DNA of 33,534 nucleotides from Cystobasidiomycetes sp. EMM_F5. Taxonomy: Eukaryota. The notes beneath the pieces were generated by a model. That model was not told the DNA's origin. It searched no databases and saw nothing but the letters and a program-made list of their open reading frames with translations. How positions within the stretch are numbered: position 1 is the stretch's first letter; each line of letters starts with the position of its first letter. Positions 1,833 through 15,100 of this stretch are shown piece by piece. The DNA lies in NCBI GenBank assembly GCA_051047955.1, contig JBPGPT010000013.1, forward strand, positions 496,001 through 529,534, written 5' to 3'. Position numbers and translations under genes: made by a program.

Positions 1833-2409
1833 TCAACGCGACATCGTCACCATTCGTCTCTGGCCGTGGACAGTAGCCGTAGAAGACGGACATCCTTGTA
1901 TGGTGACAGTTTGAGCAGTTGCCGTGGTATTTGGCGGAACACGGAAGCCAGTGGCCCATCTGTACGATATGATTAGGTATACAGCTACTGATGAACACTA
2001 CATCCAGAACACTCACCCGTTGGCATCATATGCAAAGACAAATGCGCACACGGGCTCTTTGAAACCGGTGTCGCAGCACATACTGTTTGTCAATTGGAAC
2101 AGAAAGATCAGCCATATCCAGTCAAGACGGTGATCCCACCGCACGTCTGGCACAAATATAAGTCAGCATGTATCGAGATCTCGCACTTCAGATCAGCATG
2201 CTCACATCCTCAATGACGCCGCAAGCATCCCCCGTATCTTCGTCCTTTAGCCAATGTTGGCAAGTCACGCTGTCGCCGTTACCGAGGTGGCCGAGACCGC
2301 GGTCTGTCTGGCCCGATGTATAACAATACTTGTCTGCTCGGCTGAGCTGTGTCAGCATGGTGATGCAGCCCACAAGCAAGACGGAGATGAATCGCATTCT
2401 GGAGAGCAT
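1833..2409 (-). CDS. Small secreted cysteine-rich protein, paralog A (~132 aa)
   Basis: Exons 2409-2206, 2146-2145 (AC), 2082-2017, 1959-1833. Signal-peptide-like start MLSRMRFISVLLVGCITMLTQLSRA; core C-x20-C-x12-C-x7-CC-x8-C; Thr-rich tail. All introns are GT-AG. Confidence 0.75.
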
Positions 2410-3258
2410 TGTGTTCCGTGTAAGAGCGTGTGCGTTGTGCGAGAAGAAGGCGAGGGGTGTGCTGTATAGTGTGCGTGATTCCCTGTCTTGGTGAATGCGA
2501 TGAAAGAAGAAGCAAGACTCCGTGACTGCCATGCATATTTGGAGGCTGGCCACATGTTGTCATAGACGATTGCAATGCTCGGAAGACGAGCGATATCTGA
2601 AGATGCTGTACAAAGGACAGTGTGAAAAGTCGCGTGAGCACCGACTGCTTGCCATACCGTTGTCCAGTCTTGTGAAATCCTTACGGAGCTGAAACAAGGG
2701 AGCCAGATCCTGCGGTGAAACATTGAACAGAGGGTGATGTTGAGGCCGCACACACCCGCATTGACTTGGAGGAGAATTGGAAGTGTCATGGAAAGAGTTC
2801 ATCATGAAATTAATATGTCTGCATGAAAATTTGACTCCAGCGCCAAAATCAACAACTTTCGTCATACTGCTCACGCACACGCCAACGTATACGTTCATCA
2901 CAATATCGGAATCGCAAGCGGTACAAAGGAACAGCAGGATACTTGCAAGACTGCCCCTAGTCCTTGTTGGGCGCAAAAGTCTCGAAGCCGAACCAGTGCT
3001 ACGGTCCAGAGCCCGAAAATGGACGGGGAAAGGATCGGTTGGGTTGAAACGATGTGTATTGGCATTAGAGTCTCAGTAAGTGTGTATCTATAATGCTAGT
3101 GAATCTCATATCAGTTCAATGCAGCCCCGTAAGGCGCACTAGCCAGTGGGCGTCCTTCATGGAATCTACTGCGTGATTTTTAGGCTCACGAAGCTTCCCT
3201 CGACATTCGATCGCTCTAAGCCTCCCTGCTCCGTGCACAGCACCGACAGGTGGAAGAG

Positions 3259-3919
3259 CTAGTCATCAGCGTCCAGACGCTTCTTCCGGTTTCTCGATCC
3301 GCAGCACGCGGCCGTAGTCGTTTTCGTTACTGTAGTAGTCGATACGATCGTCGTCCCTGGTAATGTTGTAGTAATCGTAATCGCTGGTAGTGTCTTCGTA
3401 ACTTCTACGGGCTTGGGCGCTGGGAAGTGTGGACCGTCGGCCCACCTGTGGTTCTCTCAGACGATGTGACGATCGACGCAGTATCATGACTCACCCATCA
3501 GCATTGAAATGGAAAGCAAGGAAGCAATACGGGTCTTTGCTGGCTCTATCGCAGCATAGCCTGGGGCCAAACTTCCCAATTCAGCCCATGGATCAATCCC
3601 ATAAGTGCTTATTGCAAGACGCTCACGTCTAAGAGATCTAGTCAGCACATACGCATGCATGACTTCGCGTTGTTGAGCTTACATTGCCATCCCCATTACA
3701 GCTTCCCTGAATGTCGTTGTCGAACAGAAAATGCGTACAAGTCACGGGCTTACGCGTGTCGTGATTGAGCCATCCATGTCCACCGTCTTGATCGTTTGTT
3801 CTATCGAAGCAGTATCTGTTTTGTCCAGGATTATCATCACCGTACGCCGAGTGCGTCAGAAAGCTCAAAGCTGACACAAGGACGCAGGCGAAGACACGAG
3901 TCGAGCCTCGGTAGAGCAT
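3259..3919 (-). CDS. Small secreted cysteine-rich protein, paralog B (~163 aa)
   Basis: Exons 3919-3683, 3628-3627 (AC), 3560-3495, 3445-3259. Signal peptide ending ...HSAYG, then NRYC...TC...SCNGDGN-T-LCCDRASKDPYC, a Thr-rich stalk and the tail CCGSRNRKKRLDADD*. Confidence 0.8.
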
Positions 3920-4432
3920 TCCAGGGCAGTGGGCTAGTGAAGGTGTGGGGGTTATGTGATGTGATTGTGATTATGATTATGATTGTGCGTGTACGTGTAG
4001 TGTCAGTGAGCGTGGAGTACTGGGCGCGTAGGTGCGAGTCCAGACTGAAATTCTTTGCGCGTTTGCAAAAAGCAAAGCTACAAGGACATCCTGACGCTCA
4101 GTCATGGCAGATGACTGGTACGAGTAGCAGTGTAAGCTGTGCAAAAGTCTTGAGAGATGCCGGCGCCACTCCGCATGTCTCATTTGCCTTTGTTGACTCG
4201 AGAGGCCGGACACCGCACATGGCCTCATGACCAGATGCGGGGTGGAGTGATGTGAATCGATGATGTGAGGGAGTCAGCGACATGATCAGCAGTGTGTGTA
4301 CGCGCAATGAGTCAACGTGGCAACGCGCAGTGAGACAATGTAGCCAAACCCATTCCGAACGTTGCAAAAGCCGCAGAAACTGACGCACTGTCCGTGTATC
4401 GATTGTGATTATGTTTACTCACAAGTGAAAAG

Positions 4433-5092
4433 TTAGGAATCAGCGTGCATACGGTTTTTCTGGTTCCTCCGTCTACAGCACGCTGCAGTAGTCGTTTTCG
4501 TTACTGTAGTAGTCGATACCATCGTCGTCCCTGGTAATGTCGTAGACACCGTAACCGCTGGTAGTGTTTTCGTGACTTCTACGGGCTTGGGCGCCGGGAA
4601 GTGTGGACCGTCCGCCCACCTATGGCGCTCTCAGATGGGTTGACGATACTTCAGTAATTATCACTCACCCATCTGCTTTGAAATGAAACGCAAGGAAGCA
4701 ATACGGGTCTTTGCTGGCTTGATCGCAGCATAGTCTAGGGCCAAACGTCACAATTAGCCTCAAGTTCGATCTCCTGAGTGCTCATCGTCAGACGCTCACG
4801 TCTGAAGACGCTAGTCAGCACATGACCATACATTGCGGTGAGTTCCTGAGCTTACATTACCTTCCCCATTACAGCTTCCCTGAACGTCGTTGTCGAACAG
4901 AAAATACCGACAAACCGCGGGCTTACGCGTGTCGAAATTGTAGTATCCGTGTCCACCGTCTTGATCGTTGATTCGAGAATAGCAGTAGCGATTTTGCACG
5001 ACACTATCGTCTCCGTACACCGAGGGCGTCAGGAGGCCTAGAATTGCAGCGAGGACGCAGGCGACAGCACAGGGCGAGCCTCGGTGTAGCAT
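4433..5092 (-). CDS. Small secreted cysteine-rich protein, paralog C (~163 aa)
   Basis: Exons 5092-4856, 4801-4800 (AC), 4734-4669, 4619-4433. Exon lengths are identical to paralog B (237/2/66/187) and many differences are synonymous; ends CCRRRNQKNRMHADS*. Confidence 0.8.
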
Positions 5093-5771
5093 GTTAGGGG
5101 CGTGAGATAGTAGTAGTGAGTGGGTTATATGTGTGTGACTGTGCGTGTACAAGTGCTGCTAGGGAGCGTGGAGTGTTAGGCTGGCAGGTGAGAGTTGCGA
5201 CCAAAGATTATTGCGCGTTTGCAAAAAGAAAGCGACAAGGAGATATTGACGCTCGCAAATGGTAGATGAGTGGTGCGGGTAGCTGTGTAAGCTGTGCAGG
5301 AGTCTTGAAAGATGCCGGCGCCACTCCCCACGTCTCATTTTGCCTTTTCTTTGACTCGGGAAGTCGGACACCGCACATGGTCCCATGACTAGATTCGGTG
5401 TCAAGTGGTGAGAAATTGGTAAGTATGAATTGTCAGTGAGACGATGAGGAGTGCGTGTATGCGCGATAAGTTGACGTGGCCACGTGGAGTGAACTAACGT
5501 AGCCAAACCCCTTGGTAACATTGCAAGAGCCGCAGGACTCTATTCTACTGTCCGCGTATCGATGACGATTGTGCATGATCACAAAGACCATTCATCGGAA
5601 GCAGCCCGCAACTTTGGAAATGTGCAACGCTGCCCACAGAGAATACAAATCCTTTGACAAACTTAGCGTACAAGATGCAGGGAAGAAGTCTGCCGCAAGC
5701 GGATAGCAAACAAAGCCGAAAGTGGTGAAAGTGGTACGGCTATCAGACTTGCAACGCAGGCGTCCTGTGCC

Positions 5772-6478
5772 TTAATCGTTGCAACGATGACATGGTGTAG
5801 ACGATGTACGAAGCTTCCTGAATCTGGTGGTAGTCGTCGTCTTAGTACAGAAAGTTGTCGTTGTCGAGATAGCGCTTGTTGTGGTGACCGAGGTCGTGGT
5901 CGCCAGGACCGTGGTAGGAACAGTTGTGATGATAGTCTTTTCCACATTTGCTGCCGTGTGTAATGGCCCTGTGGCAGCACCGCTGAATACGGAGATCAGC
6001 GCATTTCATCTATCTAGCAGCATGGGAGTTCCGCCTACTTGTTGTCAAAAACATAGAGCAATCGGCAGAAGTCTACTTCGGGTGCTTGGTCACAGCAGAG
6101 TGTCTGTGCACATGAACGTCAGCGTTGGCACACGACAACGGCGCATTCAATGTACGTCGCCAGTATCCTTGTCGCTGTTATTCCCGAGACATATCACTGC
6201 TGGGTTCGGCGCGTTGAAGTTCTTGAAGAGCGGAAATCGGCAGACTGCGGATGCTTTGCTATATAGTGTACCCTTGCCCCCGTCTGCGTCACTATGGGCG
6301 AGTTGATGTTACAGCAGGACTACAAAGTCAGCTTAGAAAGACGTCCGATCATCAGTGCAATTTACGAATTGCGTGTATAACAATAAACGTTGGCAGCGGA
6401 TGCCAGTGGCAGGAAGTACCCAACTAGACCAGCTAGAATGGCTGCGCGGATGGCATGAGAGTCCGAGCCAAAAGGCAT
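5772..6478 (-). CDS. Small secreted cysteine-rich protein, divergent paralog D (~174 aa); absent from the ORF track
   Basis: Exons 6478-6366, 6291-6156, 6103-6039, 5982-5772 give MPFGSDSHAIRAAILAGLVGYFLPLASAA-NVYCYTRNSDADGGKG...AVCRFPLF...IC...TLCCDQAPEVDFC...Thr-rich...PCHRCND*. Shares the YC, DGG.G, AVCR..LF and TLCCDQA motifs with paralog C. Confidence 0.75.
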
Positions 6479-12189: not shown

Positions 12190-15100
12190 TCAACTCTCTT
12201 CCTCGATGTTCTCAAAGGTCAAGGGCGTGAACATTGTTCCAGCGCCAGAGTAGAACTTTCCATTGAACTCGACCCAGTGGAGGCGGAGTGCTGTGAAAGT
12301 GAGTTAGCCTAAAGATGCAGAATTTCGAAGCAACGTCGGGATACCGTGGAGAAACGCAGAGAGACCTTTGCGACAATCATATTAGCAACGGTATGACTCA
12401 ATGAGAGGGGCGGACGAACCTTCCGTTACAACCAAAGTGGCGACAGTAGGGGTGAAGCGTGACGGCAAACACGATTAGCAATAGTAGGAGTAAGGTAGAT
12501 GGCTGTAATAACAGACCTTCCATTACAATCAGAATGGCAACAGAGAGAACGAACCATGCCGCAAACATGACCAAAAGTGTGGCAATGCCAGAGATGCCTT
12601 GTCCTTCGAAACCATTGCGAATGGTCATTTCCCAGAGAACTTCACTAAGTTGCCCATGCGCCAAAGATAATGCTGCGTTGCGTAGCGTTGTTGTTATTGT
12701 GTCTAGACGTCAGCCCGGAGTCCTGAGAGTCCGCAGGGGCCGCCACTCACCCCAGAGACGAAGATAGGAAGCCGTGTTGGAGATACAACCCAGACAGAAC
12801 TCGATAGTGTGAATGACTTGATGTATAGCAATCTCGCCAAATTCAAACTCGTCCTTGTGTTCCTCATTCATCTGTTCCTGTCCGCCGTTTGCGCCACCAT
12901 TTTGAGAGACGCGATTGTTGGCATTTGTGGATCCATCGCGATCAGGACCGTCTTCACCAGCATCGTAATCGTCGTCGTATGCTCGACCTCCAGAAGCTCC
13001 GCCCAGATGTGTGTAGCCTTGCTCGACAATTTTCTTGTTGTCTCTCCACAGAATGTACGGCTTGACGCACAACATCCAGGGGACACATATCAATGCAATC
13101 ATCAGAAGAACAGTCTGGATGAAAGCTTGTCCGGGATAGAGCGGCACATCGATGGTGCCGGGCGAAAGAAACATGTACTGGAAAAGGGTCGGCTACAGCA
13201 TGGCGGGTAAACAATGTTATACTCACAATCAGCATGTTCAGTAGACTTGGTGCGGCTCGCCCTTCGGCTGCCCAGTCAATCGACCATTTGTAGACGATTG
13301 TGATGACCAGGTAGCCAAAAATGCTCTCCATAAAGAGAATCTGTGGTAGCCATTCTGCCCAGATCGAGAACTTCTTGCCGAAATGTATAAAGTTGGGAAC
13401 TTGCAGGCAGATGGCAAAGGACATCTGGAAACGATGCGGGTAAGAGATGAATTTTGTACCGGTGGCAAAGAACATACATGAATGACACCGAGAATGACAG
13501 ACATCTTCATCTTGAGGGAGTTGGTAAAGATGAGAGCATTGTCTGTACCGTGCCATGCAGGATCAATACCAAATGGATAGACGTATCCAGTCGGAACAGC
13601 CGATAAAGCCCCCGTGCCGGACGGCCAGGACCATCCCGAGGGAGCAATAGTCAAATTGAGAGAGAAAATGTCATTGTACAGGAAGCCAGTGTAGATAGCA
13701 AACAGTCCCATGAGGAAGATGATGTACTGCATGGCAAGGCTCAGTCGGAGATGTTGACCGCAAGTGGCAAACTTACGCGACCAAAGTAGAAGGTGTCTGG
13801 GATTTCGCTACCGAAACCCTTTCCAATACGCTTCTCAAAGAGAATGAGCATTCCCGCTGCCAGTGCCGTTATGAAGCCATGCCCGATATCGCCAAACATG
13901 ACTGCAAACAGGAAGGGGAAAGTGATGACGGTGAAGAGACCTGGATTGATCTCTTGGTACGAAGCAACACCGTACGCATCAATGATTGCTTGGAATCCTT
14001 GAGTAAACTTGTTTGTCCGGTGGAAAGTCGGCGGATCTTTGGTAGTGGCGGTCAACTCGTGGAGAATAGCTGGCATGCTACCACCGCTGGTCTCGGTAGC
14101 AGATCGGAGTGCCAACTGTACTCTGGGCAAATCTCTGGTCGGTACCCATCCTTCTGCGATGAGTGTTGACCGACCCTGATCGTACTGGAAGTTGTTCATG
14201 GCGTTGTAAATGATCTTTTCCTTTCGGACGCAGGTCCACCAGGCCGAGATACTCTCTGCGACTTTGGAGAGTTCTGCACGACGGGTAGTCTCCGTCTCGT
14301 GAGTGATCTGAGACATCTCCTCGATGCGTGCATTGACTTCACGGAGCTTTTCGGCACGCTTGTCAGGATCGCTGTCGATGTTGTAGAGGGTACCACCCAA
14401 GGACTCGCTGATTCTGCGAATCTTGTCGAGGAGTTCGCTGCCGTGTGCAAATATGATGAAGACGTTCTTGTAAACGTGCCTTGCGCTGGCTCCCGACCCT
14501 TTGACTGGCTCAATGAAGGGAGTGTCGATCCTGTGAAGCGTAATCAGCATTTGTATGTGAGCTGTACACTGCAAGTACACACTCTGCGTAGTTCATGTAG
14601 AGATTGCCCCGCAAGACTCGCCAGAGTACTCGCTCAAAGTTGCCCATTCGAGCCCGATCTATCGTTCCAGACACGAATCTGCGTATAAAAGACGGTCAGG
14701 ACGGTGAAGGCAGTATACAGACTCAATGCTAGCCCACTCTAGACTCATGCTGCCTAGATCGCGGCCCGAAAAGCCAGCTTCAGCGTTGTCCAATGCATTT
14801 TCGAGCAACGGCGCTGTTGGCTCGTCAAAGCTCGCCCGGGCGTCGTCCATGATGGAGCTGGCGTTAGTCTCTGCCTGTCGGAAGAATACGCCCGTCTCGA
14901 GGAGGACATGCCTTGCTTCCTCGAGCTCCAGCGCTCTTCCTCTGATGCTATCCCACGAGTCTCTCAGCTGACGCAGCCTGGCCTCCAGGGTCGCAAGTCT
15001 CGGATCCAGCTCCGCGACAAAGTCACTCGCATCCCGCTGGTCCAAGAGATACCTCGTCTCCTCGAACGGGCGCACTGGAATGGCAGCATCTTCAATCTCA

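Follow-up and report, generated by a model that had tools for sequence, protein, structure and literature searches.

Gene content of the window and a tandem array of four paralogs

We analyzed a 33,534-nucleotide (nt) stretch of contig JBPGPT010000013.1 from Cystobasidiomycetes sp. EMM_F5 (positions 496,001 to 529,534 of the forward strand), called the window below, and in it a tandem array of four paralogous genes, three of which very probably contain an exon of only two bases. The window is nuclear fungal DNA and encodes the second-largest subunit of RNA polymerase III (RPC2), Tsr1, V-ATPase subunit a, a cyclin and a CBS-domain protein. The four paralogs, A to D, lie on the minus strand between positions 1833 and 6478. 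Their gene models, built from coordinates, are as follows:

1833..2409, minus strand: paralog A gene; exons 2409-2206, 2146-2145, 2082-2017 and 1959-1833; 132 codons; open reading frame with an N-terminal hydrophobic leader
3259..3919, minus strand: paralog B gene; exons 3919-3683, 3628-3627, 3560-3495 and 3445-3259; 163 codons
4433..5092, minus strand: paralog C gene; exons 5092-4856, 4801-4800, 4734-4669 and 4619-4433; 163 codons
5772..6478, minus strand: paralog D gene; exons 6478-6366, 6291-6156, 6103-6039 and 5982-5772; 174 codons

All four models start with a hydrophobic leader and end in a threonine-rich tail, and six aligned cysteines are common to them, including those of a T-[LM]-C-C-D motif. 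These features suggest that the products are small, secreted, cysteine-rich proteins. B and C are recent duplicates, with a synonymous divergence (dS) of 0.38, and the exon-1 proteins of A and B are 34-37% identical.

A probable two-base exon between two introns in paralogs A, B and C

In all three genes, exon 1 (204 nt in A, 237 nt in each of the other two) ends in phase 0. The exon that carries the Cys-Cys pair (exon 3) is 66 nt long in each, and its first base is the third base of a codon. The gap between the two exons measures 123 nt in A, 122 nt in B and 121 nt in C, and only the addition of 2 nt (modulo 3) restores the reading frame across it. Within each gap, on the minus strand, the dinucleotide AC is directly bordered by a canonical AG acceptor and a canonical GT donor (YAG/AC/GTG). 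The sites read ...tgccag/AC/gtgcgg at 2146-2145 in A, ...tcttag/AC/gtgagc at 3628-3627 in B and ...cttcag/AC/gtgagc at 4801-4800 in C. The features of the three gaps are:

2145..2146, minus strand: AC micro-exon of A; first two bases of Thr codon ACT; the sole solution for A under the strict splice rules given below
3627..3628, minus strand: AC micro-exon of B; Thr codon ACG
4800..4801, minus strand: AC micro-exon of C; Thr codon ACA
2147..2205, minus strand: A intron 1; 59 nt; gtgagc...CTGAC...ccag; donor score 7.5; branch-like motif 16 nt from the 3' splice site
2083..2144, minus strand: A intron 2; 62 nt; gtgcgg...CTGAT...acag; donor score 1.8 (weak); branch-like motif at 25 nt
3629..3682, minus strand: B intron 1; 54 nt; gtaagc...CTGAC...ttag
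3561..3626, minus strand: B intron 2; 66 nt; gtgagc...CTGAA...ccag; contains a B-only alternative acceptor, gggaag/ (last intron base 3572)
4802..4855, minus strand: C intron 1; 54 nt; gtaagc...CTGAC...tcag
4735..4799, minus strand: C intron 2; 65 nt; gtgagc...CTAAT...ctag

All six flanking introns have a donor, a branch-like motif and an acceptor of their own and are of typical length. We regard it as very probable that in each of the three genes a constitutive 2-nt exon, AC, separates two distinct U2-type introns of normal size. The productive messenger RNA (mRNA) would then join exon 1, AC, exon 3 and exon 4, and AC would supply the first two bases of the conserved threonine in the T-[LM]-C-C-D motif. 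Only 2 nt separate the acceptor of intron 1 from the donor of intron 2, and factors bound to both would overlap; with so little space between the sites, the two introns are probably removed sequentially, under intron definition. After the first excision, the remaining site would still look normal, either as a YAG/ACN acceptor or as a TAC/GTGAGC donor, and the sequence gives no indication of the order.

This arrangement had been proposed in an earlier note on the same DNA. The exon phases, the micro-exon positions and the intron lengths that it gave (59/62, 54/66 and 54/65 nt) all match the sequence, and its claim that AC plus the next base always encodes threonine agrees with the ACT, ACG and ACA codons found. 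It had further stated that translation running on from AC into the second intron meets a stop in all three copies; the stop comes after 12 codons in A and after one codon in B and in C. Its statement that skipping of AC would frameshift the product was borne out by computation of the frames.

Paralog D reads the same codon without interruption

Paralog D provides an internal control for these models. It reads ...gcacag/ACACTCTGCTGT from position 6103 and has, at the position of intron 1, one 52-nt phase-0 intron (6155-6104) directly before the contiguous codons ACA CTC TGC TGT. The second intron is absent from D and the residues T-L-C-C, within T-L-C-C-D, are encoded contiguously, as the earlier note had also held.

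In the first intron of D (74 nt; region 6104-6365, minus strand), two decoy AGs lie 3' of a CTGAC motif, and either of them would give early stops; the third AG (6292) alone keeps the frame and restores a D-x-D-G-G-x-G match to B and C. D carries one intron that is absent from A, B and C.

Frame restoration and enumeration of splice paths

If AC were skipped, the shifted frame would meet a stop after 4 codons in B and after 18 codons in A. In C, the shifted frame (4433-4734) is open for 70 codons; this frame is not conserved, and its openness is probably due to chance.

We enumerated the in-frame splice paths across each gap under two sets of rules. The strict rules called for a GTNNG donor, a YAG acceptor, a CTRAY motif within 45 nt of the acceptor and introns of at least 45 nt; the loose rules allowed GT or GC donors, any AG and introns of at least 35 nt. 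Under the strict rules, the path through AC is the only solution in A. Six solutions were obtained for C, and the five that do not use AC each delete at least 14 codons of exon 1.

Two other classes of path were tried and rejected. Read-through, intron retention or use of non-canonical acceptors leads to stops in B and C, and in A such paths need GC donors. An 11-nt middle exon, formed by way of a tag that directly follows the branch motif, gives a stop in B and would place the acceptor 3 nt from the branch motif in C. An assembly or sequencing error was likewise rejected, because the identical phase problem and the identical solution recur in three diverged copies.

Conservation, selection and chance

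The introns of A and B show no alignment above that of shuffled sequences (z 0.6-2.1), yet YAG/AC/GTG is kept in both genes. Within the gap, B and C are conserved in islands that correspond to donor 1, one branch motif, AGACGTGAGCGTCT and the acceptor of exon 3, and the sole indel from ATG to stop is a single nucleotide within intron 2. The ratio of non-synonymous to synonymous divergence (dN/dS) between B and C is 0.40 over the whole coding sequence. Downstream of AC, in the frame that AC restores, it is 0.31 (15.0 synonymous differences over 62 sites and 16.0 non-synonymous differences over 190 sites), indicating that purifying selection acts on the exons that follow AC.

Chance occurrence of the pattern was assessed with 20,000 shuffles per gap, in which YAG and GTNNG were needed and both introns had to be at least 45 nt long. 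A 2-nt exon that restores the frame arose in ∼2% of trials, and an AC exon in 0.10-0.15%. The pattern YAGACGTRMG has only four matches in the window, counting both strands, and three of these are the A, B and C sites. Because B and C are recent duplicates, the conservation represents two independent lineages (A and B/C), to which D is added as a control.

Intron sizes and splice signals

For calibration we mapped 16 introns by protein homology in two housekeeping genes of the window, seven in RPC2 and nine in the gene for V-ATPase subunit a. Their lengths range from 49 to 151 nt (median 57), and all but two fall within 49-69 nt. The half-gaps of 54-66 nt fit this local range, whereas an undivided gap of 121-123 nt would be about twice the norm. 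A CTRAN motif is found 13-25 nt from the corresponding YAG in all six half-gaps, much as in 12 of the 16 calibration introns. With a local scoring matrix, the second donor of B and C (gtgagc) scores 7.1, which places it at the 97th percentile of all GT sites, and nine of the 16 true donors score lower. Taken by themselves, the splice signals are compatible with two introns but are not compelling.

The gene for V-ATPase subunit a has an unusual region of its own (12291-12516, minus strand), in which a 21-nt exon (12365-12345) lies between introns of 151 and 54 nt. The 151-nt intron is the only long one among the 16 that were mapped, and it has an apparent AAG acceptor. It holds a diverged second copy of the end of the upstream exon together with a donor (GTTGTAACGGAAG/gttcgt compared with ATTGTAATGGAAG/gtctgt), and a second TTGCTAAT branch-like motif is present. 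The arrangement looks like a tandem duplication, which may provide an alternative 5' splice site.

Origin of the two-intron arrangement

The unrooted tree of the four paralogs has the topology ((B,C),(A,D)). Under any rooting other than one on the D branch, the state with two introns would be ancestral and D would have lost intron 2 precisely. With the root on the D branch, gain and loss would be equally parsimonious. We also considered intron 2 as a duplicate of intron 1 and rejected it, the similarity between the two being no higher than that of shuffled sequences (z 0.4-1.6).

A more far-reaching proposal would treat AG/AC/GT as a long-lived state of near-twin introns, produced by the gain of an intron 2 nt away from an existing one (or reversed by precise loss in D), in which condition-dependent inclusion of AC gates production of the secreted family through frameshift and mRNA decay. 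We consider this proposal unlikely.

Weighing of the alternatives

The earlier note had called AC a genuine 2-nt exon with D as the control. That view came through the path enumeration, the intron calibration, the shuffles, the conservation and the dN/dS comparison. Inclusion of AC in the mRNA is a prediction from the genomic sequence.

Further points count against a constitutive 2-nt exon. The control is itself a predicted gene model, and two of the donors in D are atypical (gtaaat and gtacat), with no G at the usual +5 position. The second donor of A, gtgcgg, is weak, only one of the 16 true donors having a score below its 1.8, and the acceptors are mediocre (0.6-3.4 for those that precede AC, -1.6 to 0.4 for those that precede exon 3). 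The strict rules give no solution for B, because its intron 2 has CTGAA in place of CTRAY, and the loose rules give 4, 6 and 12 in-frame paths with a single intron and 18, 71 and 78 with two introns in A, B and C, respectively. A frame-restoring middle exon of any length arose in ∼10% of the shuffles. B and C are not independent of one another, and the conservation is seen within one genome, the searches described below having found no homolog outside the window for comparison across species. Paralog B, in addition, has an in-frame path that avoids AC, and an AAG acceptor of the kind which that path needs is apparently used once in the gene for V-ATPase subunit a; the path is taken up below.

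One alternative is that each gap is a single intron of 121-123 nt. A, B and C would then be frameshifted relics, or would yield no more than a peptide from exon 1 plus a short tail out of frame, and D would be the only full-length member. Every model requires the outer donor and the final acceptor, which could be joined directly, and an intron of 151 nt does occur in the V-ATPase gene of the window. The open shifted frame of C would also suit this alternative; the corresponding frames of A and B are short, as described above. What speaks against it is the state of the downstream exons. Exons 3 and 4 are open in the AC-restored frame in all three copies and align with D, including the CCD motif and a G-W-A motif at the next junction, and between B and C they combine the low dN/dS reported above with a coding sequence free of indels. 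A frameshift as old as the split between A and B/C, to judge by the exon-1 identity, would have left stops and indels. We consider a single long intron distinctly unlikely.

A second alternative concerns B, where the earlier note had pointed out a possible alternative acceptor; the site, gggaag/TTTGGC, is indeed present. Splicing from the donor at 3682 (or from gtatgt at 3652) to this AAG acceptor (last intron base 3572) would keep the frame by a different path, with F-G-P-R in place of the threonine. This path is in frame and open, and its product would read N-FGPR-LCCD, with the junction ...GGCAAT-TTTGGCCCC. The AAG is the first AG 3' of the CTGAA branch-like motif in intron 2 of B, and its acceptor score (-1.7) is close to the -1.6 of the CAG that precedes exon 3. 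The site is specific to B, however: C carries GAC there and A lacks a counterpart with a GT donor, so the family as a whole is not explained by it. Use of the AAG would also leave the conserved AG/AC/GTGAGC island and the second branch motif unexplained, and it breaks the T-L-C-C-D match of B to C and D. As an account of the gap in B we consider it very unlikely, and splicing to the AAG acceptor as a minor form of B is possible.

Regulated inclusion of AC, an extension suggested in the earlier note in which skipping would yield a frameshifted and probably unstable mRNA and so act as an expression switch for the gene family, is the least likely of the readings weighed here. It draws on geometry (donor 1 and acceptor 2 could pair directly, with a shift of frame), and a regulated microexon has been reported in Trichoderma Xlr2 (PMC11121469). 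In Coprinopsis cinerea, exons of this kind are described as belonging to normal gene models, with premature stops when they are omitted, and not as switches (PMC12230235).

The family and its genomic surroundings

Searches for relatives of A to D queried single exons rather than spliced proteins, so distant relatives may be missed. A tblastn search of the window found no further paralogs. An exon-1 profile built from A, B and C matched none of 1.84 billion representative proteins at E values up to 0.001, and a scan of metagenome contigs for the family returned 136 pattern matches, none of which was confirmed by tblastn. Exon 1 of A, B and C and exon 2 of D have no Pfam family at E values up to 1; the sole Pfam match, to exon 4 of B, is far below the cut-off. 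In a protein atlas, the best score (0.76) was to a cluster of bacterial hypothetical proteins and is not meaningful. With no homologs found outside the window by these single-exon searches, A to D appear to form an orphan, lineage-specific family.

The duplication that gave rise to B and C takes in ∼230 nt 5' of the ATG (3920-4150 and 5093-5330, minus strand), over which the two copies are 66% identical. Some of the blocks conserved there, TTTTTGCAAACGCGCAA among them, may be promoter elements common to B and C. B alone has an extra A/C-rich repeat insert immediately before the ATG.

No protein in the large collection that was searched exceeds 77% identity to the RPC2 fragment of the window. 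In a quick tree of this single gene, the window groups with Pucciniomycotina on a long branch of its own, with a support of 97 in the Shimodaira-Hasegawa-like approximate likelihood ratio test (SH-aLRT). For a fragment of V-ATPase subunit a (window positions 13741-14580), two environmental proteins match with 86% identity (P0122) and 79% identity (P0123), and on the strength of these matches relatives of the organism exist in environmental data. The contigs of P0122 and P0123 barely exceed the coding length and look like transcripts.

Consequences for annotation

If these genes were annotated without AC, three of the four members of a lineage-specific secreted family would be called truncated, frameshifted or missing, and an error of this kind hides candidate secreted proteins in fungal genomes. 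With three paralogs, an adjoining control and a local calibration of intron size, the locus is a clear textbook case and could serve as a test case for gene finders that take micro-exons into account. The case of A, B and C leaves knowledge of splicing itself unchanged and amounts to a sound correction of gene models. If the single-gene placement holds, it would add a basidiomycete lineage other than the mushroom-forming fungi to those with 2-nt exons.

Comparison with known systems

At recursive splice sites (see PMC6224609), both excisions leave nothing behind. The gaps of A, B and C resemble such sites, and stwintrons, in that one intervening region undergoes two canonical splicing reactions, probably in sequence, and in that an AG nearly adjoins a GT. 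They differ in what remains, since no nucleotides are left after both excisions in those systems and 2 nt must stay here. A stwintron identity was rejected on this ground: in a stwintron, or spliceosomal twin intron, the splice signal of an external intron is split by an internal intron and both disappear entirely, whereas removal of the whole gap would shift the frame of A, B and C. A look-up of wording on micro-exons in two stwintron papers gave no occurrences (PMC6616335 and PMC5639578).

Closer parallels come from ultra-short exons. Among the papers listed by a literature search with phrases for a 2-nt exon, none describes a natural fungal case, as judged by titles and the openings of abstracts. 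Arabidopsis APC11 has a 1-nt exon (PMC4674806), which likewise is ultra-short, constitutive and required for the reading frame; it differs in belonging to a plant gene and in having experimental proof. In Fusarium, the CYP621A P450 genes need a 1-nt exon, confirmed by reads from the Sequence Read Archive (SRA) and found in 20 orthologs (PMC12940212), and according to the same paper annotation pipelines miss such exons. The likeness to A, B and C is extensive and takes in the incompatible exon phases, an apparent intron of about double length, an aligned AG/N/GT with conserved signals and an intron-less relative that serves as a ruler (PMC12940212). The Fusarium exon is 1 nt long and occurs in ascomycetes in a well-known enzyme family, whereas the exons described here occur in three paralogs of one genome that belong to no known family.

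In a long-read annotation of Coprinopsis cinerea, 13 exons are 1 nt long, 57 exons in 50 genes are 2 nt long and 27 are 3 nt long; of the 89 gene models with such microexons, 63 acquire an alternative stop codon when the microexon is omitted (PMC12230235). With that many 2-nt exons in a single basidiomycete, the rarity implied in the earlier note was overstated. C. cinerea is like the present organism in being a basidiomycete with nuclear U2-type introns and with 2-nt exons whose omission creates premature stops. It belongs to the Agaricomycotina, whereas the window groups with Pucciniomycotina in the single-gene RPC2 tree. The exons of C. cinerea rest on long-read complementary DNA (cDNA) and those of Fusarium on reads, whereas the case for A, B and C is one of sequence logic; here, on the other hand, three members of an orphan secreted family share the exon, and a paralog lacking the second intron lies next to them. 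The probable micro-exons of A, B and C belong to the known class of ultra-short exons (at most 3 nt), in which they stand out by their conservation in three paralogs and by their built-in control.

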